Assembly (NCBI GenBank): GCA_963749205.1 | Contig: CAVVLW010000007.1 | Span: 390,794 to 454,793, forward strand | Direction of reading: 5' to 3' | Source: an uncultured Thermoplasmata archaeon | GTDB taxonomy: Archaea > Thermoplasmatota > Thermoplasmata > Lutacidiplasmatales > UBA184 | DNA length: 64,000 nt | Shown: positions 3,114 through 27,292 of the stretch, in pieces | Position numbering within the stretch: the first letter of the stretch is position 1 | Layout of the letters: each line of letters starts with the position of its first letter | The notes under the pieces: generated by a model | Database searches by the model: none | What the model was told of the DNA's origin: nothing | What the model saw: only the letters and a program-made list of their open reading frames with translations | Position numbers and translations under genes: made by a program

Positions 3114-3931
3114 GGCGCCGGGTCCTTGTGGGAATCCTCGCCGCCCACAATCACCAGGTTCCCCCTCGAATCGCGCAGGACCTCCACCCGAACACCGTAG
3201 AGCGCGGTGAGGCTCTCCGTCGTCAGCACCTCAGTCGGCAAGCCCGTGGCGACTCGGCCGTTCGCGAGGTAGATGACCTTGTCCAGATGCTGGATAAGAG
3301 GGTTGATGTCGTGGGCGACGAGCAGGGTCGCCACGTCCCGCGTTCGGACGAGGTTATTGACGAGGTCGACGAGCTCTTTGGCCCTTCGGATATCCAAACT
3401 AGCGAGGGGCTCGTCCAGCAATAGGAGCTGGGGACGGCCCGCGAGAGCCTCGGCCAGGAAGATCCGCTGCAACTCGCCCCCGGACATGGCGCCGAGCGAT
3501 TTCTTCCCCAACTCAGTGGCGCCCACGGCGGCCAGCGCCTCGTCGGTCGCTGCCCGTTCCTCGCGGAACATCCGCGGGGTTAGGTTCGGGATCCACCGAT
3601 TGCCCGAGTACCCAAGACGCACGAGCTGGGACGCCTCAACATTCGTATCGCGGTCCACCACGTGGCTCTGCGGCACGTAACCGATCTTCGAATTTCCACG
3701 TCGGGGGGCGGCGCCGAAAATCTGCAAGTCCCCCCCCGCGGGTGGGACCAATCCCAGCAGCAGGCGGAACAGGGTCGTCTTCCCTGCTCCGTTCGGGCCG
3801 ATGACGGCCACGAACTCCCCTCGGCGTACGCGGAAGTTGGCGTCGCTCCAGATGGTGCGACCCCCATATTCTACCTCCAGGTGGTCCGCTCGTGCGATCT
3901 CCGACTGCACGGTAATCTTCTCTCCTGGCAC
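3110..3931 (-). CDS. Metal ABC transporter ATP-binding protein (ZnuC/MntA-like)
   Basis: Walker A GPNGAGKTT, signature LSGGELQR, Walker B LLLLDEP. 4-nt overlap with the permease. Confidence 0.9.
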   Translation of the reverse strand: MPGEKITVQSEIARADHLEVEYGGRTIWSDANFRVRRGEFVAVIGPNGAGKTTLFRLLLGLVPPAGGDLQIFGAAPRRGNSKIGYVPQSHVVDRDTNVEASQLVRLGYSGNRWIPNLTPRMFREERAATDEALAAVGATELGKKSLGAMSGGELQRIFLAEALAGRPQLLLLDEPLASLDIRRAKELVDLVNNLVRTRDVATLLVAHDINPLIQHLDKVIYLANGRVATGLPTEVLTTESLTALYGVRVEVLRDSRGNLVIVGGEDSHKDPAP

Positions 3932-3950
3932 TCCGCCACCGTGCGGTGGC

Positions 3951-5072
3951 TCAATTCCCGAGCACGTTGGCGTCGAGGTAGACGTAGAGCTCGCTGTATT
4001 CCCCCCCCATCCATTGCTGGAAGGTGTCCGAGGGCGGCACGATCGTCTCGGTTACGCTCATCACGCTCACATTGTTGTCTTGGGCGATCGCCTTCATGTT
4101 CGTCGTGATCGGCGTCACCGTCTGGGCGTTGAAGACCAGCACCCGGACGTGCCCGCTCTCGAGCTGACACTGGAACGTCACCACGCTCTGGTCGGGTGGG
4201 TCGTTCCCTTCGGCGACCGCCTCCATGAACGCCGGCGGGGAGACCAGGTTGAGCCCGGTCGCGTTGGCGAGATAGACGAAGATGCTCTCGGTGGAGGCGA
4301 CCACCGTGCCCGCGAACTGATGCTTGATCGCCGTGACCTCGGAGTAGAGCGAGCCCAGGGAGGCGCTGAGATTGTCGTACTGGCCCTTGAAGTAGCTGGT
4401 AAGCGAAGGCGCGATCGTGGTGAGGTTGTGGTACATCCAGGCCACGGTCTCGTTCACGTAGGTCGGATTGTACCAAAGGTGCGGATTGCCTGTGACGATG
4501 CCCCCCGTTACATAGACGCCCAGCATCTCACCGATGTTCAGGATCGTTTGATTGGTGTCGCCGTCTGCGGCGATGAGGATGGTCGCCCAATCGTCATACC
4601 CGACGTTGTTGAGGATCACGTACTGAGCATTCTTGATCGCTCTGGCATCGGAATCGTTGGACTGATACTCGTGTGGGTCCGTATTCGGGTCAGTGATGAT
4701 GCTCGTGACACTAACGTGCGTCCCCCCCAGCTGGGAGACGAGGCTTCCCCAGAAGTTCTCGGCGGCCACGACGTTGATGACCAACCCCGAGGACGCGGGG
4801 GCACTCCCGACGGCACCCACGCGGCTTGTCCGGTCGGAGGGCGACGCGCCTGGGGGGGGGTCGGGCGAGTAGACCTTGGCCACTGGAGAGAGTGCTCGAC
4901 CCGCATCGCCTCGTGTCGAATCAGACGCGGTGACTCCGCTCGGACCAGTCGGAGTCACCACTCCAATGCATGGCGAGGGTGGCGCACCGAGCACGTAGCC
5001 GACGTACACGCCGGAGCTGACGATCACCACGGCCACTACCACCGCAATCGCGACCTTCACATTCTTCTGCAT
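3951..5072 (-). CDS. Metal ABC transporter substrate-binding protein (ZnuA/TroA family)
   Basis: N-terminal TM/signal (KVAIAVVVAVVIVSSGV). VINVVAAENFWGSLVSQLGG..ITDPNTDPHEYQ..YVILNNVGYDDW is typical of cluster A-I binding proteins. Confidence 0.85.
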   Translation of the reverse strand: MQKNVKVAIAVVVAVVIVSSGVYVGYVLGAPPSPCIGVVTPTGPSGVTASDSTRGDAGRALSPVAKVYSPDPPPGASPSDRTSRVGAVGSAPASSGLVINVVAAENFWGSLVSQLGGTHVSVTSIITDPNTDPHEYQSNDSDARAIKNAQYVILNNVGYDDWATILIAADGDTNQTILNIGEMLGVYVTGGIVTGNPHLWYNPTYVNETVAWMYHNLTTIAPSLTSYFKGQYDNLSASLGSLYSEVTAIKHQFAGTVVASTESIFVYLANATGLNLVSPPAFMEAVAEGNDPPDQSVVTFQCQLESGHVRVLVFNAQTVTPITTNMKAIAQDNNVSVMSVTETIVPPSDTFQQWMGGEYSELYVYLDANVLGN

Positions 5073-5105
5073 TTTGTGTCTCCGTTCCGTTTCAGACCCT
5101 GCTCG

Positions 5106-5537
5106 TTAGCCGCTCGTGTCCGAGGAATGACACGGTGCGATCGGCTGCCCGTGGGGACAAGCTGCGGGGTGCTGCTGCGCTCGGCACACCTCTTCTACCG
5201 TTCGATGTGAGATCGCGAGGTCGATCTCCCGGGCCGCCGCGCACGTCTGCTCGGGCGCGAGGCCGAGGCTGCCGAAGATGGTCTCGGCGACGCGGTGGTG
5301 GCGCTGGTATTCGACCAGAGTGTTGCGCCCCCGGGTCGTGAGCCGAGATTTCCCGCGGTGACGTACGATGAGCCCCATCTCCTCGAGCGGGGTCAGGTAG
5401 CCGAGCGCGGACGGCGGACGAACCTTGAGTGAGGCTGCGGTGAGCTTCAACGAGACGCCTCGGTCGGGAGTCTCTTGGGTACCGACCGTCCGAAGCGCGT
5501 CAATCTGGCGGCGGGTGAGTTGCTGGAGCGGCTCCAT
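5106..5537 (-). CDS. DtxR/MntR-family metal-dependent transcriptional repressor
   Basis: Internal ATG at 5537 of the 224-aa ORF. MEPLQQLTRRQIDALRTV...SALGYLTPLEEMGLIVRHRGKSRLTTRGR..VEYQRHHRVAETIF. ATATATAT box at 5559-5566, about 25 nt upstream. Confidence 0.8.
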   Translation of the reverse strand: MEPLQQLTRRQIDALRTVGTQETPDRGVSLKLTAASLKVRPPSALGYLTPLEEMGLIVRHRGKSRLTTRGRNTLVEYQRHHRVAETIFGSLGLAPEQTCAAAREIDLAISHRTVEEVCRAQQHPAACPHGQPIAPCHSSDTSG

Positions 5538-5797
5538 CGATCTCCCCAACCTCCCGCGATATATATGTGGCACCATAATTATTAGGCATGGCCGAAAGTT
5601 CGAGAGCCAACCAACAAGGTTCTCGTGCGAGGGTGGCGAGTTCCTCGCGGGTACTACACCTCGGCCGTAGCCTCGACGGGACGAGAGCGGCGTCCGCTCA
5701 ATTCCAGGTTCGAACCAAGGACAGGGAGCAAGCCCGATGGGATTTCGAGGGATAAGACCAAAAGGTTGATATGCGCCCAATGCGGATTAATACGTGG

Positions 5798-6568
5798 ATG
5801 ACCAGCTACCGCTGGCGTCGTCGCCGCGGGTCCCGCGGGGTGGCGCCCATCATCGGCACCATCCTCATCTTGGCGATGACCATGGTAGTGTTCACGATTC
5901 TGTTCTCCTTCCGGTTCTATACCCCGCCCGCGCCTCCGAGCGCGACCTTCGCCATCCGCTCGGGTGGGAGCAACCCGGTTTGGGGAGACGGCACGGACAC
6001 TCCCGGGAACGGAGTCTATTCGCTGTTGAACACGACGGCGATCATCGTCGCGAGCGCGTCACCGATCAATATCCCGCTCTCCCAGGTCCAGTTCACTTTC
6101 ATCTGCAATAACGAGAGCTCCGGCGGGAACGAGACGATCCTGGTCCAAGGTAGCCTACAAGACATGAGTTGGTACCCGGGCGTTTCGGGCGTGGCTCCCC
6201 CGAACGCTCCGAAGCTGGGGTGGTGCGCGAGCTTCCACGCGGGCGGTTTTGGCGGCGGAGCCTTCGGCACCGCGTATAACCGGCTGGGGCTGTTCCTCCC
6301 GATCTCGGACGTGAACCTCACCCTGCAGGCAGGAGACACTTTCCTCCTCTACATCCACAACGGAGGGTACCCGATCGGTTACACGGCCGCCGGGGAGCCG
6401 TGCCAAGGCGCCGCGACCTCGTGCCTGGACTCGGACGATTATCACGGCGCGCCGCCCTGGTGCTTCACGAACCCGGGCTCGTGCACGATCTACCTGACCT
6501 ATACCGGGACGCCACAGACCGTGCTCGCCCAAATCCCGGTCTATTCCCTCGCCCCTCCCGTCTCGTGA
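5798..6568 (+). CDS. Archaeal type IV pilin-like protein (class III signal peptide)
   Basis: MTSYRWRRRRGSRG|VAPIIGTILILAMTMVVFTILF is the archaeal pilin/archaellin N-terminal motif (basic stretch, G, then xPxIG plus hydrophobic helix). The rest is Ser/Thr/Gly-rich and looks extracellular. Confidence 0.65.
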   Translation: MTSYRWRRRRGSRGVAPIIGTILILAMTMVVFTILFSFRFYTPPAPPSATFAIRSGGSNPVWGDGTDTPGNGVYSLLNTTAIIVASASPINIPLSQVQFTFICNNESSGGNETILVQGSLQDMSWYPGVSGVAPPNAPKLGWCASFHAGGFGGGAFGTAYNRLGLFLPISDVNLTLQAGDTFLLYIHNGGYPIGYTAAGEPCQGAATSCLDSDDYHGAPPWCFTNPGSCTIYLTYTGTPQTVLAQIPVYSLAPPVS

Positions 6569-6676
6569 GCGCCCCCTCCGGCGTCCTCTCTCGCCCGGGC
6601 GAGGAACGTTCGTGTCGTTGCGTGGGTTCTTTAACACCCGACCGACTGTAATCCTTCGATCGAGGAAGGTAACGCG

Positions 6677-7172
6677 TTGGCGGTCAAGATAAAGCGGCGT
6701 CATCTGTGGACGATCGCGGTCGCGACCGCCGCCACCGTCCTCGTGGTCCTCCTCATACTCATCGCGGCCGGCGCGCTGGTCGTCCCCGGCACTTCCTCCC
6801 CCGCTCCGGTGAGCGTGACCTCGGTGCAGTTCACGATCCTTCAGGGGACGAATGCCAGCGGGAACCCGTGGTTCGGGCCGAGCACGGTCGTCTACACGGG
6901 GCTCGCTAACGGGTACCCGTTCACGGTTTCCCCGGGGGGCGGGTTCTCCGTACCGATCACCTTCGAAAACTACGACAGCAGCCCCCATACCCTCTATTCC
7001 ATCTCGGCGGCAGCGCCCTTCTCCTTCGCCGGGCAGCTCTCCCACTCTGCCCCAAACGCTGAAGGCCTTCCAGGACGACGCGTACCTCATGATCATGGTG
7101 ACGGCGCCCTCGAGCCCCGGTGCCACGCTCGCCCTCTTCATCACGATCAATGCCCTCCCGCCCACGTCGTAA
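6677..7172 (+). CDS. Membrane-anchored hypothetical protein (frame break near 7040)
   Basis: TTG start. N-terminal anchor HLWTIAVATAATVLVVLLILIAAGALVV. The C-terminus continues in another frame (..PTLPQTLKAFQDDAYLMIMVTAPSSPGATLALFITINALPPTS*). Confidence 0.45.
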
Positions 7173-19248: not shown

Positions 19249-21027
19249 GTGGCGCGGATCGCGATCCTGCTCAACGACCGGTGCCACCCGAAGGAGTGCC
19301 AGTGGGAGTGCCAGGCGTACTGCCCGCCGGTGCGCATGGGCCAGGAGTGCATCATCGAGGGGCCGACGGGCAAACCGATCATCTCCGAGACCCTCTGCAT
19401 CGGATGCGGGATCTGCGTCCACAAGTGCCCGTTCGATGCGATCAAGATCCTCAACACCCCCGAGGCGGACCCGAGCGAGATCGTCCACCGGTACGGCTAC
19501 AACGGCTTCCGGATGTACCGCATGCCGATCCCACCGGCCCGGGGATCACGGGGCTCCTCGGCCCGAACGGGACCGGAAAGTCGACCGCCCTCCGGCGACT
19601 CTCCGGGCAGGAAGTGCCGAACCTCGGGGACTACGAATCCCCCGGAGCCTGGCCGAAGGTGCTCGAACACTACCGCGGCACCGCGCTCCGCGCCCACTTC
19701 GAACGGGTATCGAAGGGGGAGCTCACGCTCGGTCCTGAAGCCGCAGTACGTCGACCGGATCTCCGACGAACCGTTCACCGCGCTCGACTACGTCCTCGCG
19801 GCGGGTCCGGGGGGACGAAAGGCACTCGACGAGGTCGGGCTCGCGAACCGGGCCGACCGCCGCCTGTCGGAGCTGTCGGGAGGCGAGCTCCAGCTCGTGT
19901 CGATCGCTCGGACGATCGCTACCGACGTCGACCTCTACCTGATCGACGAGCCGTCGAGCTACCTCGATATCGTGCACCGCCTCGAGGTCGCGCGGATCCT
20001 GCGACGCTTGGGAGAGACGAAGAGCGTCCTCGTCGTCGAGCACGACCTCGCACTCTTGGACTACCTCGCCGACCAGGCCCACCTGATCTACGGAGAGCCC
20101 GCGGCGTTCGGCGTCATCAGCCATCCCCTCCCGATGCGCGCGGCGATCAACACCTACCTTACCGGCTACCTCAAGGACGAGAACGTTCGGTTCCGCACCG
20201 AGCCCGTCCGGTTCGTCTCCCACCCGCCGAAGCCGGCCGCCCGGGCGAACACGCTTGTGCGGTTCCCGGCCCTCGAGAAGGAGTATCCCGAGTTCCATCT
20301 CTCGGTGGGTGCGGGGTCGCTCGCGAAGGGCCAGGTCGTGGGGATCGTCGGACCGAATGCGACCGGGAAGACGACCTTCGTTCGGATGCTCGCGGGCGTC
20401 GAACCTCCGACGCGGGGCGCCCCCCCCGAGGGGGTCACGGTCAGCTACAAGCCGCAGTACCTCAAGGCGACCCAGTCGGCAAGCTTGCGCGAGCGCGCGG
20501 CCGCGCTCGCGAACGACCCGACGTTCGACGCGAAGCTGTTCGAGCGGGAGCTCGTCCCCGGCCTGCACCTCGAAGAGATCCAGGACGTCGCGCTCACCGA
20601 CCTCTCGGGCGGCGAGCTCCAACGCTCCGCGGTCGCCCTCGCGCTCGCGCGGCCCGCGACCCTCTACCTCCTGGACGAACCGTCGGCGTACCTGGACGCG
20701 GACGAACGGATGTCGATGGCGCGGCTCGTCCGCCGCCAGGTCGAGCGTCAGGCGGTGAGCGCTCTCGTCGTCGACCACGACGTCTACTTCCTCGACCTCG
20801 CGTGCGACGAACTGATGGTCTTCGGCCCGGATGCGCCGGACGGTTCGAAGGGGCGCGGCGACGGCCCGTTCGCGATGCGGGAGGGGATGAACCGCCTGCT
20901 TGCCGGGGTCAACATCACGTTCCGCCGCGACCCCGAGACGCTGCGCCCCCGGATCAACCGCGAGGGGTCGGTCCTGGACCGCGAACAGCGGGCGCGGAAG
21001 GAGTACGATTACGAAGCCGCCCAGTGA
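19249..21027 (+). CDS. abce1: ABCE1/Rli1 ribosome-recycling ATPase, with a compensated pair of frame breaks (near 19535 and 19732)
   Basis: N-terminal 2x[4Fe-4S] CPPVRMG..CIGCGICVHKCPFDAI. The first Walker A (GITGLLGPNGTGKSTALRRLSGQEVPNLG) appears only in the alternate frame between the two breaks. Second NBD GIVGPNATGKTT, LSGGELQR, LLDEPSAYLD. Confidence 0.9.
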   Translation: MARIAILLNDRCHPKECQWECQAYCPPVRMGQECIIEGPTGKPIISETLCIGCGICVHKCPFDAIKILNTPEADPSEIVHRYGYNGFRMYRMPIPPARGSRGSSARTGPESRPPSGDSPGRKCRTSGTTNPPEPGRRCSNTTAAPRSAPTSNGYRRGSSRSVLKPQYVDRISDEPFTALDYVLAAGPGGRKALDEVGLANRADRRLSELSGGELQLVSIARTIATDVDLYLIDEPSSYLDIVHRLEVARILRRLGETKSVLVVEHDLALLDYLADQAHLIYGEPAAFGVISHPLPMRAAINTYLTGYLKDENVRFRTEPVRFVSHPPKPAARANTLVRFPALEKEYPEFHLSVGAGSLAKGQVVGIVGPNATGKTTFVRMLAGVEPPTRGAPPEGVTVSYKPQYLKATQSASLRERAAALANDPTFDAKLFERELVPGLHLEEIQDVALTDLSGGELQRSAVALALARPATLYLLDEPSAYLDADERMSMARLVRRQVERQAVSALVVDHDVYFLDLACDELMVFGPDAPDGSKGRGDGPFAMREGMNRLLAGVNITFRRDPETLRPRINREGSVLDREQRARKEYDYEAAQ

Positions 21028-21106
21028 GACGGAGGAACCCTCCGAGGCCGCCCCCCCCGCGCTCGACGCGGGGGGTCGCTTTCACGCGCACGGCACCATC
21101 TCGTAC

Positions 21107-21583
21107 GTGACGGTCGGGGTCTATCTCGTCCTCCTGCTGGTCCTGTACCTCATTGTCGTGCCGAGCTCGTTCGACCAGCGACCGGAGCTGATCTACCTCC
21201 TGATGCTGGTCGTGGTCTTCTTTCTGTTTCGGTACGCGACCACGAATTACTCGATCGACGACTCGTACCTGCACGCGCGCCGGGTCCTCGGTCCCCGGAC
21301 GGTGCCGCTCAGCGAGGTCCGCAAGATCGAGTTCATGGCCCTCCGCGACCTCTCACCGACCGGGTTCTTCGGCTCGTGGGGATATCGCGGGCGAATGTGG
21401 AGTCCCGTCATCGGCTGGTTCGAGGCGGTCTACACCGACCCCGTCGGGCTTCTCGTGACCGGCGGCCCGCACCCGCTGTTCATCTCCCCTAAGGACCGGG
21501 TGGCGTTCGCCCGCGAGCTCTCTCGCCGCGTTCGGTCCTACTCCGGGCCATTGTCGGTGGACGACGGGTCCCCGAGTGTCTGA
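21107..21583 (+). CDS. Membrane protein with bacterial-PH-like domain
   Basis: GTG 21107. Two TM helices (VGVYLVLLLVLYLIVV, LIYLLMLVVVFFLF), then YSIDDSYLHARRVLGPRTVPLSEVRKIEF. The longer ORF start overlaps ABCE1. Confidence 0.45.
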   Translation: MTVGVYLVLLLVLYLIVVPSSFDQRPELIYLLMLVVVFFLFRYATTNYSIDDSYLHARRVLGPRTVPLSEVRKIEFMALRDLSPTGFFGSWGYRGRMWSPVIGWFEAVYTDPVGLLVTGGPHPLFISPKDRVAFARELSRRVRSYSGPLSVDDGSPSV

Positions 21584-21584
21584 A

Positions 21585-23074
21585 TCAGTACGTCGGGAGG
21601 CTCGGGTCGACCCGCTCGGCCCACGCGGTGATCCCGCCGGACAGGTTGCGCACGTTCGAGAATCCGAGGTCGAGGAGCAGGCGGGTCGCCTGCGACGACC
21701 GGCCCCCGGTTCGGCAGTAGACGACCAGCCGCCGCGCCCCCGTCAGTTCGTTCAGGTGGTCGGGGAGCTGCCCCCGAGGGATCAGGTGGGCGTTCGGGAG
21801 GTGGACGATCTCCCACTCGTTCGGCTCCCGAACGTCCACCAGCATCGGCGGGTCGGCGCCGGCGAGCTCGTCCCGGAGCTCTTCGGGCGAGATCTCGGGG
21901 AGGTTTGCGCCCTGCGACTCGGGACCGGCGGCGGGGATCCCACAGAAGGCCGGGTAGTCGATGAGCCCCTTCTGCGGCGCGTTCGGAGAGCAGATCACGC
22001 ATGCCGGGTTCTTGCGGAGCTTCAGCTCGCGGAACCGCATCGCGAGCGCGTCGTAGAGGAGGAGCCGGCCGATGAGGGGCTCGCCGATGCCGAGCAGGAG
22101 CTTCACGGTCTCCGTCGCCTGGATGAGCCCGATGAGCCCCGGGCAGGACCCCGAGGACCCCGGCCTCCGCGCACGAGGGGACGAGGTCGGGGGGCGGCGG
22201 CTCGGGATAGAGGCAGCGGTAACAGGGCCCTTTCGAGGCATCGAAGACGCTCGCCTGGCCCTCGAATCGGTAGATCGAGCCGTAGACGTTCGGTTTGCCC
22301 AGGAGCACGCAGGCGTCGTTCACGAGGTAGCGGGTCGGGAAGTTGTCGGTGCCGTCCACGACCACGTCGTACGGGCGCAGGACCTCGAGCGCGTGGTCGG
22401 CCGTCAATCGATGTCCGATCGGAACGACGCGAACCCCAGGATTCAGGGCCTCGAGACGGTCCTTCGCCGCGTCGAGCTTCGGGCGGCCGACGTCGGCCGT
22501 CGTGTAGAGGACCTGCCGTTGAAGGTTGGAAAGATCGATCTCGTCGAAATCGGCCAGGCCGATCTCTCCGACCCCGGCCGCCGCGAGGTAGAGCGCCGTC
22601 GGAGCGCCGAGGCCCCCGGCCCCGACGAGCAGGACCTTCGACCGGCGGAGGCGCTTCTGCCCGGCGACACCGACCTCGGGAAGGAGGAGGTGCCGGCTGT
22701 AGCGGCGGAGCTCGTCGCGGGTGAGGGTGTCGGCGGGGGGGTTGGGCAGGACGGTCAGCGGGTTCGGGACGGACCGTCCGCGGGCCCCCGCCGGGGCCCC
22801 GCCCGCGATCGCCGGGAACGATCGAAACGATGTCGCCCTCCTTCACGGGGGTCGCGTCGCGCTGGAGGGAGCGCACGTCCTCGTCGTTCAAGTAGACGCT
22901 AACGAAGTTCCGCAACTTCCCTTCGGGCGTGAACAGGTGCTTTTTGAGGCCCGGGTACGTGTCCGCGACGCCGCGAACGAGCGCACCGACCGTGGCCCCG
23001 TCCGACGGCACTTCGGCGTGCCCGTCCGCGAACGGACGCAGCGGGGTGGGAATCTTCACCGTCACGCTCGGCAT
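21585..23074 (-). CDS. CysO/MoaD-like ubiquitin-like domain fused in frame to MoeZ/UbaA-like E1 adenylyltransferase plus rhodanese domain (frame breaks near 22815 and 22138)
   Basis: Ubl: MPSVTVKIPTPLRPF..NFVSVYLNDEDVR..EGDIVSIVPAIAGG. Linker APAGARGRSVPNPLTVLPNPPADT has no stop or start codon. E1: LTRDELRRYSRHLLLPEVG..VLLVGAGGLGAP..CYRC..CVIC. Rhodanese: VVYCRTGGRSS. Confidence 0.8.
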
Positions 23075-23079
23075 CTACG

Positions 23080-23569
23080 TCACCGTCCCCCGGAAGCTCT
23101 TAGGCTCTCGGTTACCCGCGCATCAGCGGCCGGGGTCGTGACCAACGTCACCTCGCGGAAGACCCCGGAATCGGGGTCGAGCTCGAACGCCCCGATCGCG
23201 TGCGCGTCGGTCGCCGACACCGAGACGACCACGTAGGTGTACCAGGGCCAAGCGTGCGCCTGGTCGAACGCGGACGGGCGAGCGGGGTGGTCCGGATGCG
23301 AGTGATAGAAGCCCGCGACGACGCGGTCCGTTCCCCCGAGCGCGTTTTCGGCCGAACGCAGCTCTTCTGCTCGGATGACGAACCGGCGTCGGCGCTCCCC
23401 CTCGAACTCGTTCGGGGCGCGTTCCGTCGCGACGATGGACCGGGGACCGTTCGGGGCGGTAGGGTCGGCCCCCGCGATGAGGAAGCCGCAGCACTCATCC
23501 GGGTAGGTCTCCCGGGCGTGCCGCCGGATCTCCGCGACTAGGGGTTCGGGGAGGCTGTACCGCTCTCAT
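23080..23569 (-). CDS. JAMM/Mov34 (Mec+-like) metalloprotease (frame break within the first codons, near 23558)
   Basis: ATG overlaps the cysM stop (ATGA). Hand translation gives YSLPEPLVAEIRRHARETYPDECCGFLIAG...GFYHSHPDHPARPSAFD, the E..HxHx7Sx2D JAMM motif. Confidence 0.75.
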
Positions 23570-24440
23570 CTTGGCTCTCCAGTAGAAAACCGGCGTTCGC
23601 CGTCCGGGAGCAGCGTGACGACGACCGCGCCTGGCCTCGCGAGGCCGACCTCGATCGCCGCGACGACGGCCGCCCCCGACGAGACGCCGACCGCGAGACC
23701 TTCTTCGAGGGCGAGGCGCCGCTGCATCGCCTGGGCCGCCTCGGTCTCGACGCGGACGGTCGAGTTGACCAGACGTTCGTCGTAGGTGCCTGGCCGAAGG
23801 GCGGACGGAAGGTGCTTCAGACCCTCGATCCCATGGATCGGACCCGTCGGCTCGATGCCGACCACCCGAATCCCGGGCGTCGTTCCTTGAGGAAACGTCC
23901 CGTTCCCGATATCGTTCCTCCGGTGCCGACCCCAACGACGAGATCGGTGATCCGGCCCGAGGTCCGGTTCCAGATCTCCGGACCCGTGTGTCGATAGTGG
24001 GCGTCCGGGGATTCGAGGGATTGTTGTAACTGGTCGCCGTAGAAGTAACGCTGGGGGTCGGCGAGCGACCTCCGACGTGCCTCGCGCTGGGCTCCGTCGG
24101 TCCCCTCGGCGGGGTCCGTGAAGACGACGATCGGCCCTGTACGCCGGATCCGGGCGACCCGCTCGGGGCTCGCGTTGCGCGGCAGGCAGAGCTCGACCTC
24201 GAACCCGAGGCGGGCGCCGAGCATGGCGTACGCGACCGCAGTGTTCCCGCTCGAGGCATCGAGGAGGACGCGTCCCGGGCCGAGCTGGCCCACGTCGAAC
24301 GCGTCGCGAACGATCTCGAGGGCGGCCCGGTCCTTGACCGATCCGGTGGGGTTGAGGAACTCGGCCTTGGCCCACAGCTCGAACTCGCCGCACGCCACCT
24401 CCGATAGGCGTCGTAGCGGTAGGAGCGGGGTCCCGCCCAC
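23566..24440 (-). CDS. cysM: PLP-dependent cysteine synthase (CysM/CysK family), three frame breaks (near 24030, 24008 and 23878)
   Basis: GGTPLLPLRRL..AKAEFLNPTGSVKDRAA..LDASSGNTAVAYA..; YNNPSNP appears only in the alternate frame; ..HYRHTGPEIW..VGVGTGGTISG..; then PGIRVVGIEPTG..SSGAAVVAA. Confidence 0.8.
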
Positions 24441-24508
24441 CGAGGAGAGGAGAGGGTCGTCGACCGCCGGGTTCCGTCCTTGAGCCCGAGCGGACGAAGG
24501 GACCCGGA

Positions 24509-25157
24509 CTACCGGAGCTGGATCAGATGCGTACACCGCATCCCCCCGCGGCCGATCGAGTCTTCGAGGTCCACTCCGACCTCGCCGAGGAGCGCCTCGG
24601 TGAGGTTCTTGTCGAACACGTCGCAGAGGAGGTACGGGTGGCTGAGCGCGCTGTGGCGGAAGATGCAGTTCGTCCGAACGATTCGGACGTGTCCGTCCGG
24701 CAGTCTTCTCCAGAGAGCAGCGGAATCCGAGGTCGTTCAGGGCCGCGACCAGGCGCCGGGCCTTCTCGTCCGTCGTCGCTGCTTTCGGGATTTCTTTGGC
24801 AATCGCGCCCGCCATCCGGCGCGCGGACTCCGCGAACAGGGCGCTGACGAATCCTTCGCCCTCGCTGGCCAGGAGCTCGTCGACCACAGCGTCCAGGATC
24901 AGGTCGTAGCTCTTCGGGAAGAGGTCTTGGCCCTGGCCAGTAAGGAGGTAGCGCTTTCGTGGCCGGCCCACGCCCTCCCGACGGAACGACGGGACGACAA
25001 GGCCCCGCTCCTCCATCCGGTCCAGATGGCCCCGGGCGGCGCTCTCCTGGATCCCGAGTGTTTTCGCTAGGTCGCGCGCGGTGCGCGGGGCTATCGCGAG
25101 CTCTTCGAGAATGCGCCCACGGGTGCCGACCAACGACCCGCTCTCTGCCGCGCTCAT
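24509..25157 (-). CDS. SufR-like ArsR-type wHTH regulator with C-terminal Cys motif (frame break near 24715)
   Basis: wHTH RGRILEELAIAPRTARDLAKTLGIQESAARGHLDRMEERGLV. The alternate frame gives VRIVRTNCIFRHSALSHPYLLCDVFDKNLTEALLGEVG..GGMRCTHLI, matching the SufR-type C-x12-C-x..-C arrangement as I recall it. Confidence 0.65.
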
Positions 25158-26064: not shown

Positions 26065-27292
26065 ATGGACGTCGGACGGATTCGAGCGGACTTTCCGATC
26101 CTCGGGCGCTCGTTCCACGGTCATCCCCTCGTTTACCTCGACTCGGCGGCGACGTCGCAGAAGCCGACCGCCGTCCTCGATGCGGAGTCGCGATTCTACA
26201 CTGAGCAGAACGCCAACGCCCACCGGGGCGTCTACGCACTGAGCGTCGAGGCGACCGACGCCTACGAAGGCGCCCGCGAGCGGGTGGCGCGGTTCCTACA
26301 CGCCCGGGACCCTTCCGAGGTCGTCTTCGTCCGCGGCACGACCGAAGCGCTCAACCTTGTCGCGGCGAGCCTCGGCCATTCGACCCTCGAGCGCGGCGAC
26401 CGGGTCCTCAACGACGGTGATGGAGCACCACTCGAACATCGTCCCCTGGCACATGCTGCGGGAACAGTCCGGAATCGGACTCGATTTCGTCGACATCGAT
26501 GCCGACGGGCGCCTGCGTCTTGACGAACTCGACCACCTCCTGGGACCGAAGACCAAGGTCGTGACGATCACCCATGCCTCGAACGTCCTCGGCACCGTGA
26601 ACCCGGTCCGCGAGATCGCAGACCGAGCCCATGCGGCGGGCGCGATCGTCGTCGTGGACGCGGCCCAGTCCGCACCGCACCGCCCGGTCGACGTTCAGGC
26701 GCTCGGCGCCGATCTCCTCGCGTTCTCCGGTCACAAGGTGCTCGGTCCGATGGGGATAGGGGTCCTCTGGGGCCGAGCGGACCTTCTCGAGAAGATGCCT
26801 CCCGCGTCCGGGGGCGGCGAGATGATCCGGGAGGTCCATCAGGACCGCGTCAGCTATCGGGAGCCCCCCGCCCGATTCGAAGCGGGGACGCCCAATGTCG
26901 CGGGGGCGGTCGCGCTTTCGACCGCGCTCGACTATCTGGAGCACCTCGGATGGGAGGAGGTCGCCGCGCACGAGCGAGGGTTGCTTGACTACTCTTCAGA
27001 GCAGGCTCGCCAACGCCTAGGAGAGAAGCTCCGCGTGTACGGGCCGACCGGGTCTAAGGACCGCCAGGGACTCGAGTCGTTCTCGCTGGAAGGGGTCCAT
27101 CCCCACGACGTCGCGACCCTGCTCGATGCGGACGGGGTCGCCGTCCGAGCGGGCCATCACTGTTGCCAGCCGCTGATGGACCGGCTCGGCGTCCCGGCGC
27201 TCACTCGGGCCAGTCCGTACATCTACAACGACCAGAACGACATCGACCGGCTGTTCGACGGACTCGAAAAAATCGTCAAGGTGTTCGCCTGA
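26065..27292 (+). CDS. sufS: Cysteine desulfurase SufS (frame break near 26405)
   Basis: VYLDSAATSQKP..NANAHRG.., MEHHSNIVPW, ITHASNVLG, FSGHKVLGPMGIGVLWG, RAGHHCCQPLM. Confidence 0.9.

Follow-up and report, generated by a model that had tools for sequence, protein, structure and literature searches.

An operon on the minus strand of a 64,000-nucleotide (nt) stretch of DNA (hereafter the window) from an uncultured soil Thermoplasmata archaeon probably encodes a bacterial-type cassette for protein-thiocarboxylate-dependent cysteine synthesis, in which the enzyme that activates the sulfur carrier (E1) bears this carrier as an N-terminal domain, the frame breaks seen in the window being very likely assembly errors. 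Three-frame translation of the window, which has a G+C content of 59-72%, yielded four co-directional genes between positions 25157 and 21585, and the parts were identified by scanning each reading-frame piece against Pfam and NCBIfam. All catalytic motifs of the domains encoded by the operon were found. Matches of the pieces to PALP/cysM, Prok-JAB, ThiS, ThiF and Rhodanese bear out the three consecutive minus-strand genes reported in an initial annotation of this DNA; a fourth gene, encoding a SufR-like regulator, belongs to the same unit. The features are, in order of transcription:

24509..25157, minus strand: SufR-like winged helix-turn-helix regulator with C-terminal Cys residues (N-terminal piece matches HTH_5/MarR_2; TIGR02702 SufR below cut-off)
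23566..24536, minus strand: CysM-like cysteine synthase dependent on pyridoxal 5'-phosphate (PLP) (PALP on both pieces; best family TIGR01138 cysM)
23080..23569, minus strand: JAMM/MPN+ metalloprotease, Mec-like (Prok-JAB, E 1e-20)
22798..23074, minus strand: CysO-like ubiquitin-fold (beta-grasp) sulfur-carrier domain ending ...VPAIAGG (ThiS family, E 7e-12)
22729..22797, minus strand: linker from Gly-Gly to E1, without stop codon, the predicted cleavage region (variable stretch, low model confidence)
21933..22728, minus strand: E1-like adenylyltransferase domain of ThiF/MoeB fold, containing GAGGLG and a pair of CXXC zinc motifs (ThiF, E 1.5e-72)
21585..21905, minus strand: C-terminal rhodanese domain with active-site loop CRTGGRS (Rhodanese, E 3e-21)

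The closest relative, a genome of the same genus (G012), served as the reference for intact gene anatomy and for indels. At the DNA level the window and this genome are 90% identical in the fusion gene and 88% identical in the three genes upstream of it. All of the operon genes are intact in G012 (locus L013), and the encoded proteins were used to obtain NCBIfam equivalog scores:

3299-3946: regulator, 215 amino acids (aa)
3919-4887: CysM, 322 aa, overlapping the regulator gene by 28 nt
4884-5369: JAMM protein, 161 aa, with an ATGA overlap with cysM
5375-6862: fusion protein, 495 aa, after a gap of 5 nt

Since the junctions overlap or nearly abut, we infer that the four genes are transcribed as one unit. 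Stop codons were located in the window for cysM (TGA, 23568-23566), the JAMM gene (TGA, 23082-23080) and the E1-rhodanese (TGA, 21587-21585), and the described spacing of 5 nt between the JAMM stop and the ATG of the ubiquitin-like domain (Ubl) at 23074 proved exact. The letters of the ATGA overlap between cysM and the JAMM gene are likewise present at 23569-23566, but only in the relatives does this ATG share the frame of the JAMM body; in the window it is put out of frame by an indel at about 23554. The GTG at 24440 previously taken as the cysM start is replaced here by GTG 24536 as the likelier initiation codon, because the latter is homologous to the sole possible start codon in G012 and overlaps the 3' end of the regulator gene.

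The resemblance of the carrier to CysO was confirmed with the intact G012 domain, for which the best solved relative found by phmmer was Mycobacterium tuberculosis CysO (3DWG_C, E 1e-17), followed by the ThiS/MoaD-family structure 4N6E_B; matches to SAMP1 (E 4e-5) and MoaD (E 4e-6) structures were far weaker. The Gly-Gly terminus is not followed by a stop codon, such as gives the free C-terminal Gly of the M. tuberculosis CysO pathway, and the Ubl and E1 therefore constitute one gene. Both lie in G012 within a single open reading frame (ORF) of 495 residues with the junction ...GDVVSIVPAIAGG-APAEARRSATPTALTVLPSAPTDTLSRDELRRYSRHLLLPEVG..., and an open frame of approximately 500 residues covers both in at least 11 genomes of the genus, so that the fusion recorded in the initial annotation is real. 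Protein clusters that combine ThiS, ThiF and Rhodanese domains, at an identity of at least 69%, number more than 120, and those that are named are annotated as 'MoeB' or adenylyltransferase/sulfurtransferase.

Conservation was counted across 32 fusion proteins sharing 42-84% identity with the G012 protein. The carrier end, (I/L)(V/I)P(A/S)(I/V)AGG, was essentially invariant, both Gly residues were invariant and the next residue was Ala or Ser in 26 of the proteins, while the linker between Gly-Gly and the conserved R-Y of the E1 measured 9-39 residues and was unconserved. An AlphaFold model of the G012 fusion (mean predicted local distance difference test score, pLDDT, 86) comprised three confident domains, with values below 50 for residues 91-112, which span the Gly-Gly and linker; the linker is predicted to be disordered. 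An invariant Gly-Gly end followed by an unconserved, predicted disordered linker is what would be anticipated were exposure of the terminal Gly carboxylate required, and the fused carrier probably has to be cut free after Gly-Gly. The candidate protease is encoded by the adjacent JAMM gene, whose product possesses the Glu, HxH and S..D of a Mec+-type site, in E(CCGF), i.e. DECCGF, and HSHPDHPARPSAFD, and has the Mov34/MPN protein 2KCQ as its best match in the PDB. The best 80 loci in species-representative genomes, each read frame by frame, comprised 24 true in-frame fusions, 28 loci in which a separate cysO-like gene immediately precedes the E1 and 28 with no upstream carrier gene. A JAMM gene lay within 3 kb at 21 of the 24 fused loci compared with 16 of the 28 separate-carrier loci (Fisher p = 0.03), and a JAB gene adjoined the fusion in all six distant fusions inspected. 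Trimming of this kind is performed by other JAMM proteases, HcyD acting on the C-terminus of the carrier HcyS and QbsD on that of QbsE. The processing of fused Ubls by JAB proteins was predicted in PMC1779556, and fused MoaX requires cleavage for activity according to the title of PMC4326299.

The CXXC motifs of the E1, CYRC (C284/C287) and CVIC (C358/C361), were nearly invariant among the 32 fusions, as C453 and R458 of the rhodanese domain were without exception. In MoeZ/MoeZR the first CXXC is replaced by NYRD and the second is missing (PMC3227635); as both are kept here, the E1 is by its motifs of the MoeBR type and the MoeZ identity assigned to it earlier was rejected. Scores were in keeping with this assignment: the sole equivalog model passed by the E1 was NF006444 MoeB (486.6 bits for the G012 copy, cut-off 449), with 492 bits for NF005902 MoeZ lying below a cut-off of 647. 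The best fold match was Uba4 (6YUB, E 1e-36), together with ThiF and MoeB.

CysM carries the PLP lysine and the Gly-rich loop. The 322-residue G012 protein scored 315 bits against TIGR01138 cysM, below the cut-off of 394, and its best matches in the PDB were CysM of Salmonella and Escherichia coli. Its placement was by bit-score ranking and one 5-sequence alignment, which stand in for a CysM/CysK tree. The supply of substrates was assessed in 19 genomes of the genus, including that of the window and 18 congeners. No match to CysE was found in 18 of the 19, and a short PGDH-like dehydrogenase was present in all; for these reasons the sequences make O-phosphoserine the more plausible substrate of CysM, and the earlier suggestion to that effect is retained as plausible only. 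The search for SepCysS recommended with that suggestion returned no match above the cut-off in genus genomes, the weak ones being other aminotransferase-like frames, and a SepRS/SepCysS route was discounted. The corresponding check for other cysteine synthases had a different outcome. Genes for cystathionine beta-synthase (CBS) and a cystathionine gamma-lyase (CGL)/synthase-type enzyme are adjacent both in G012 (L027 1580-4115) and in the genome of the window (C7:264460-266993, outside the window), which rules out that this genome has no other cysteine synthase. CBS, a PALP domain with a C-terminal extension, scored 496.5 bits, just below the cut-off of 510; it is frame-broken in the genome of the window, and a CBS-like frame occurs in almost every genome of the genus. 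One member of the genus, and only one, has a CysK-like gene beside a CysE-like gene (G013:C2:189154-190839; 179.5 bits for the latter), probably a separately acquired O-acetylserine pathway.

The proposed course begins with the regulator, cysM, JAMM and Ubl::E1-rhodanese genes being read as one unit, as the sequences of the relatives indicate. The adjacent JAMM protease would then cut the 495-residue precursor after Gly-Gly into a 92-residue CysO-like carrier and the E1-rhodanese. The E1 would adenylate the C-terminal Gly of the carrier, and persulfide from the rhodanese Cys would convert it to a thiocarboxylate. CysM would generate aminoacrylate, probably from O-phosphoserine given that the genus is without serine acetyltransferase, and this intermediate would be attacked by the carrier thiocarboxylate. 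Following an S-to-N acyl shift, the same JAMM protein would hydrolyse carrier-cysteine, yielding cysteine and a recycled carrier. Finally, the E1 probably also serves a stand-alone MoaD and a second Ubl.

The 215-residue G012 orthologue of the regulator scored 50.9 bits against SufR TIGR02702 in a match spanning the full model, for which the cut-off is 178.8. Its C-terminal cysteines are arranged as N-C-x12-C ... C. The gene is situated between a divergent suf cluster (sufC start 25260, plus strand) and the cysteine operon; in G012, too, sufC and sufS lie upstream of the operon and divergent from it. Cysteine supply could be linked to Fe-S status through such a regulator.

Full-length fusions down to 41% identity were recovered from 1.8 billion representative proteins, and named members of the clusters to which they belong came from Gemmatimonadales, a deltaproteobacterial metagenome-assembled genome (MAG) and Evtepia. 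Three of the 24 in-frame fusions in the locus census are in Thermoplasmata; the rest are in MAGs labelled Gemmatimonadota, Acidobacteriota, Chloroflexota, Bacteroidota, Elusimicrobia and Firmicutes. Identity to the archaeal fusion reaches 60-62% among bacterial loci, many of which repeat the order CysM-JAMM-Ubl-E1, and the closest non-fused E1-rhodanese is that of the acidobacterium Terracidiphilus (59% identity). Relatives at the level of the order gave unfused E1 matches only, with 36-45% identity and open frames of 335-392 aa. The occurrence of in-frame fusions under six bacterial phylum labels at up to such identities, together with the unfused E1 of the order-level relatives, suggests from sequence comparison that the cassette was acquired from bacteria by horizontal transfer. 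An association of ThiS/MoaD, E1-rhodanese, JAB and cysteine synthase in operons was catalogued in bacteria by Iyer, Burroughs & Aravind 2006 (PMC1779556, Table 1 row 4c). That four activities are co-encoded in one archaeal operon, as noted initially, is upheld; that the arrangement was undescribed is not, and the novelty of the operon to archaea was ruled out by this catalogue and by the genome scan, in which bacterial cassettes, fused or not, were common.

Some loci differ in their surroundings. In a Deltaproteobacteria MAG (L021 5323-7545) a separate ThiS gene and a JAB gene precede a fusion with a degenerate N-terminal domain, and the cassette stands beside genes for aldehyde:ferredoxin oxidoreductase and two MoeA proteins, a tungsten/molybdenum-cofactor setting without CysM. 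Synteny with G012 breaks downstream of the fusion, where that genome has a MetE-like gene (cobalamin-independent methionine synthase-type; L013 6994-8106), of which no orthologue was found by tblastn in the genome of the window; positions 20900-21583 of the window are occupied instead by a convergent ORF of 227 aa, followed by ABCE1.

Most genomes of the genus contain no MoeB-type E1 besides the fusion. MoaD is encoded next to MoaE in genus genomes with the single E1, a second Ubl of 89 residues with a Gly-Gly end was read in one congener (G011), and an NcsA/TtuA-like PP-loop ATPase is present in all. Since it is the sole MoeB-type E1 in most members, the fused enzyme probably serves several carriers, MoaD and the second Ubl among them, as MoeZR does in mycobacteria; the dual role of MoeZR, with the pathway chemistry, is documented in PMC3227635. 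The same congener as carries the second Ubl also encodes, after an ORF of 226 aa, a 493-aa protein with a possible JAB-like motif (HSH...S..D) and an E1 domain (L030 1584-3065; G011:C17). It resembles a bacterial JAB-E1 (Cap2-like) system and was seen in this one congener only.

The initial annotation described a complete operon. None of the genes forms an uninterrupted ORF in the window, where seven frame-breaking indels relative to G012 were mapped over 3.6 kb:

about 24701: +1, regulator (alignment A2, column 460)
about 24029: +1, CysM
about 24010: +2, CysM
about 23877: -1, CysM
about 23554: +1, JAMM (alignment A2, column 1608)
about 22818: +1, Ubl (alignment A1, column 257), hiding the PAIAGG end in the ATG frame of the window
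about 22140: +1, E1 (alignment A1, column 935)

The +1/+2 pair in CysM is compensated, at the cost of seven garbled codons at the conserved Q-Y-N-N-P-x-N-P motif. Most of the seven indels fall in short runs of C, G or T. Downstream of the breaks, changes relative to G012 cluster at third codon positions and are predominantly synonymous (94:28 and 53:26 for the two later segments of the fusion gene), which indicates that selection acted in the unbroken frame. Conserved genes elsewhere fared alike, six of eight compared with G012 being frame-broken in the genome of the window, SufS and CBS among them. The assembly has a size of 2.03 Mb in 11 contigs and an estimated completeness of just 60.6%; of the 18 congeners, eight with sizes of 1.6-2.3 Mb have a completeness of 90-99%. 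Because unrelated conserved genes are broken in the same manner and the operon of so close a relative is intact, the frame breaks are very likely to be assembly errors, not biology. With about two frame-breaking indels per kb in the operon, gene and pseudogene calls from this assembly are not trustworthy.

Two of the neighbouring genes illustrate the condition of the assembly. The coding sequence of SufS cysteine desulfurase (26065-27292, plus strand) is divided between ORFs 26065-26523 and 26357-27292, which overlap; tblastn with the G012 protein shows one switch of frame at about residue 116. ABCE1, a homologue of RNase L inhibitor (19249-21027, plus strand), is a single ORF of 592 aa, in which the first P-loop stretch is out of frame; the correct ...GLLGPNGTGKST... 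is found in another frame, a compensated double frameshift of the same type of error as in the operon.

A number of observations weigh against the operon being a cysteine cassette of the kind proposed. A mycobacterial-type CysM was ruled out: bit scores were 237 to Salmonella CysM, 209 to M. tuberculosis CysK1 and 171 to M. tuberculosis CysM; the protein ends approximately 20 residues before the C-terminus of M. tuberculosis CysM and so is without the mycobacterial tail; and the alignment places Lys (GLKHL) at the position of Arg220, where Salmonella CysM also has Arg. Arg220 is the determinant for O-phosphoserine in M. tuberculosis CysM, and the tail of that enzyme guards the aminoacrylate and selects thiocarboxylated CysO. 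Being non-mycobacterial in both tail and residue, CysM could simply use sulfide or thiosulfate. With the exception of MoeB NF006444, no equivalog cut-off was reached, whether for CysM, MoeZ, SAMP1 or desampylase models (SAMP1, 53 bits against 60; desampylase, 70.5 against 130; UbaA likewise fell short, with 329.7 against 450). MoeBR of M. tuberculosis does not act on CysO (PMC3227635). There is no JAMM gene within 3 kb at three of the 24 fused loci, and cleavage is a prediction from sequence for every fused form. The operon is not the only possible route to cysteine, as the CBS/CGL pair offers reverse transsulfuration. It is also dispensable: in two genomes of the genus (G001 and G003) the whole operon and any ThiF-family E1 match are absent, with MoaD, MoaE and the NcsA/TtuA-like ATPase retained.

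Several of these points could be accommodated if the Ubl::E1-rhodanese and JAMM protein constituted a general sulfur-carrier or ubiquitin-like hub, for molybdopterin, tRNA thiolation and perhaps sampylation, with which an ordinary sulfide- or thiosulfate-dependent CysM was only co-regulated. The solitary E1 alongside MoaD/MoaE, another Gly-Gly Ubl and the NcsA/TtuA-like ATPase would fit such a hub, as would the matches of the carrier to SAMP1 and of the JAMM protein to the desampylase model, an enterobacterial-like CysM with neither the tail nor Arg220, and the deltaproteobacterial fusion beside aldehyde:ferredoxin oxidoreductase and MoeA genes with no PALP gene. Against this, the SAMP1, UbaA and desampylase scores all lie below their cut-offs, the carrier is far nearer to CysO than to SAMP1 or MoaD, cysM overlaps the JAMM start codon, the order CysM-JAMM-Ubl-E1 is kept across several bacterial phyla, and CysE is not there to provide O-acetylserine to an ordinary enzyme, so that the hub is considered unlikely. 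A further and more novel proposal is regarded as tentative and somewhat doubtful: a horizontally acquired bacterial polyprotein, CysO-like carrier::MoeB-rhodanese, would have replaced an ancestral archaeal UbaA-type E1 in this genus and become the sole activator of its entire ubiquitin-fold sulfur chemistry, for cysteine, molybdopterin and tRNA thiolation, perhaps also for protein modification, with the JAMM cut after Gly-Gly obligatory and carrier and E1 made 1:1.

It is less probable still than the hub that the fused domain is never released but is an integral part of the E1 with a docking, regulatory or auto-inhibitory function, the true carriers being stand-alone Ubls. Certain ThiF proteins, e.g. 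of Campylobacter, do possess an N-terminal Ub-like domain together with a separate ThiS, and a different role has been suggested for the fused domain (PMC1779556); the degenerate fusion accompanied by its own ThiS gene and the three fused loci with no JAMM gene nearby might be understood likewise. An end of the CysO C-terminus type that is invariant in 32 fusions and gives way to an unconserved, predicted disordered linker is difficult to reconcile with a permanent module, and the separate-cysO and fused loci are otherwise the same cassette, differing by a stop codon and a few bases. Least probable of all is that the operon is a decaying pseudogene cluster in this genome and its seven indels real mutations. 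All of its genes are frame-broken in the window and its absence from two congeners implies that loss is tolerated, but breaks of the same kind affect SufS, ABCE1, CBS and the regulator, most coincide with short C, G or T runs, the substitutions beyond them are strongly synonymous, and completeness is low despite an assembly of full size. The reading preferred remains a cysteine cassette whose fused carrier is released by the neighbouring JAMM protease.

The chemistry of the M. tuberculosis pathway, with CysO, Mec+, CysM and MoeZR, has been reconstituted (Burns 2005; O'Leary 2008; Voss 2011, PMC3227635). This pathway shares with the present operon the same four activities, a CysO-like carrier with an ...AGG end, a JAMM hydrolase and PLP-dependent CysM in one operon, and an E1 with a C-terminal rhodanese that here probably also serves MoaD. 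It differs in that moeZ is unlinked, whereas here the carrier is fused to the E1, the E1 is of MoeBR type, CysM is tailless with Lys for Arg220, the host is archaeal and a SufR-like regulator is present. By its component set the operon is identical to, and a member of, class 4c of Iyer and colleagues, and bacterial loci have the same order; PMC1779556 lists a separate carrier gene and bacteria only, whereas the stop codon between carrier and E1 is absent here. Removal of residues after Gly-Gly before adenylation is a feature of HcyS/HcyD/HcyF of the Wolinella methionine pathway, QbsE/QbsD/QbsC of thioquinolobactin and the fused MoaD-MoaE protein MoaX. In these the extension is 1-2 residues, or MoaE, compared with a whole E1-rhodanese of about 400 residues in the archaeal fusion. 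In the Hcy system the same JAMM protein also releases the amino-acid product.

The Haloferax SAMP/UbaA/HvJAMM1 system is similarly archaeal and comprises a Gly-Gly ubiquitin-fold protein, one multi-purpose E1 and a JAMM protease, but UbaA lacks a rhodanese domain, Haloferax has no linked CysM and the cut-offs for SAMP1, UbaA and desampylase are not reached by the present proteins, which are bacterial-type. Eukaryotic Uba4/MOCS3, the E1-rhodanese for Urm1/MOCS2A, gave the best fold match and likewise combines an E1 with a rhodanese; it has no fused carrier and its pathway is that of tRNA thiolation and molybdenum cofactor, not cysteine. Other fusions of a Ubl to an E1 have been noted in certain ThiF proteins, e.g. 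of Campylobacter (PMC1779556), and in Thaumarchaeota. No paper describing or testing a CysO::E1 fusion was found in a literature search beyond whose reach lay most subscription journals, which is weak evidence. What is new here is the Thermoplasmata host and the fusion of a CysO-type carrier to a MoeBR-type E1, the kind of pathway being already known.

If the proposed reading is true, the synthesis of cysteine from a carrier protein without free sulfide, familiar above all from M. tuberculosis, would have an archaeal representative in this operon. Databases annotate the widespread fused form simply as 'MoeB'. Its product would be a natural example of a ubiquitin-like protein synthesised jointly with its E1 in one polyprotein, from which a JAMM protease liberates it, an echo of eukaryotic ubiquitin, whose fusion precursors are processed by deubiquitinases.

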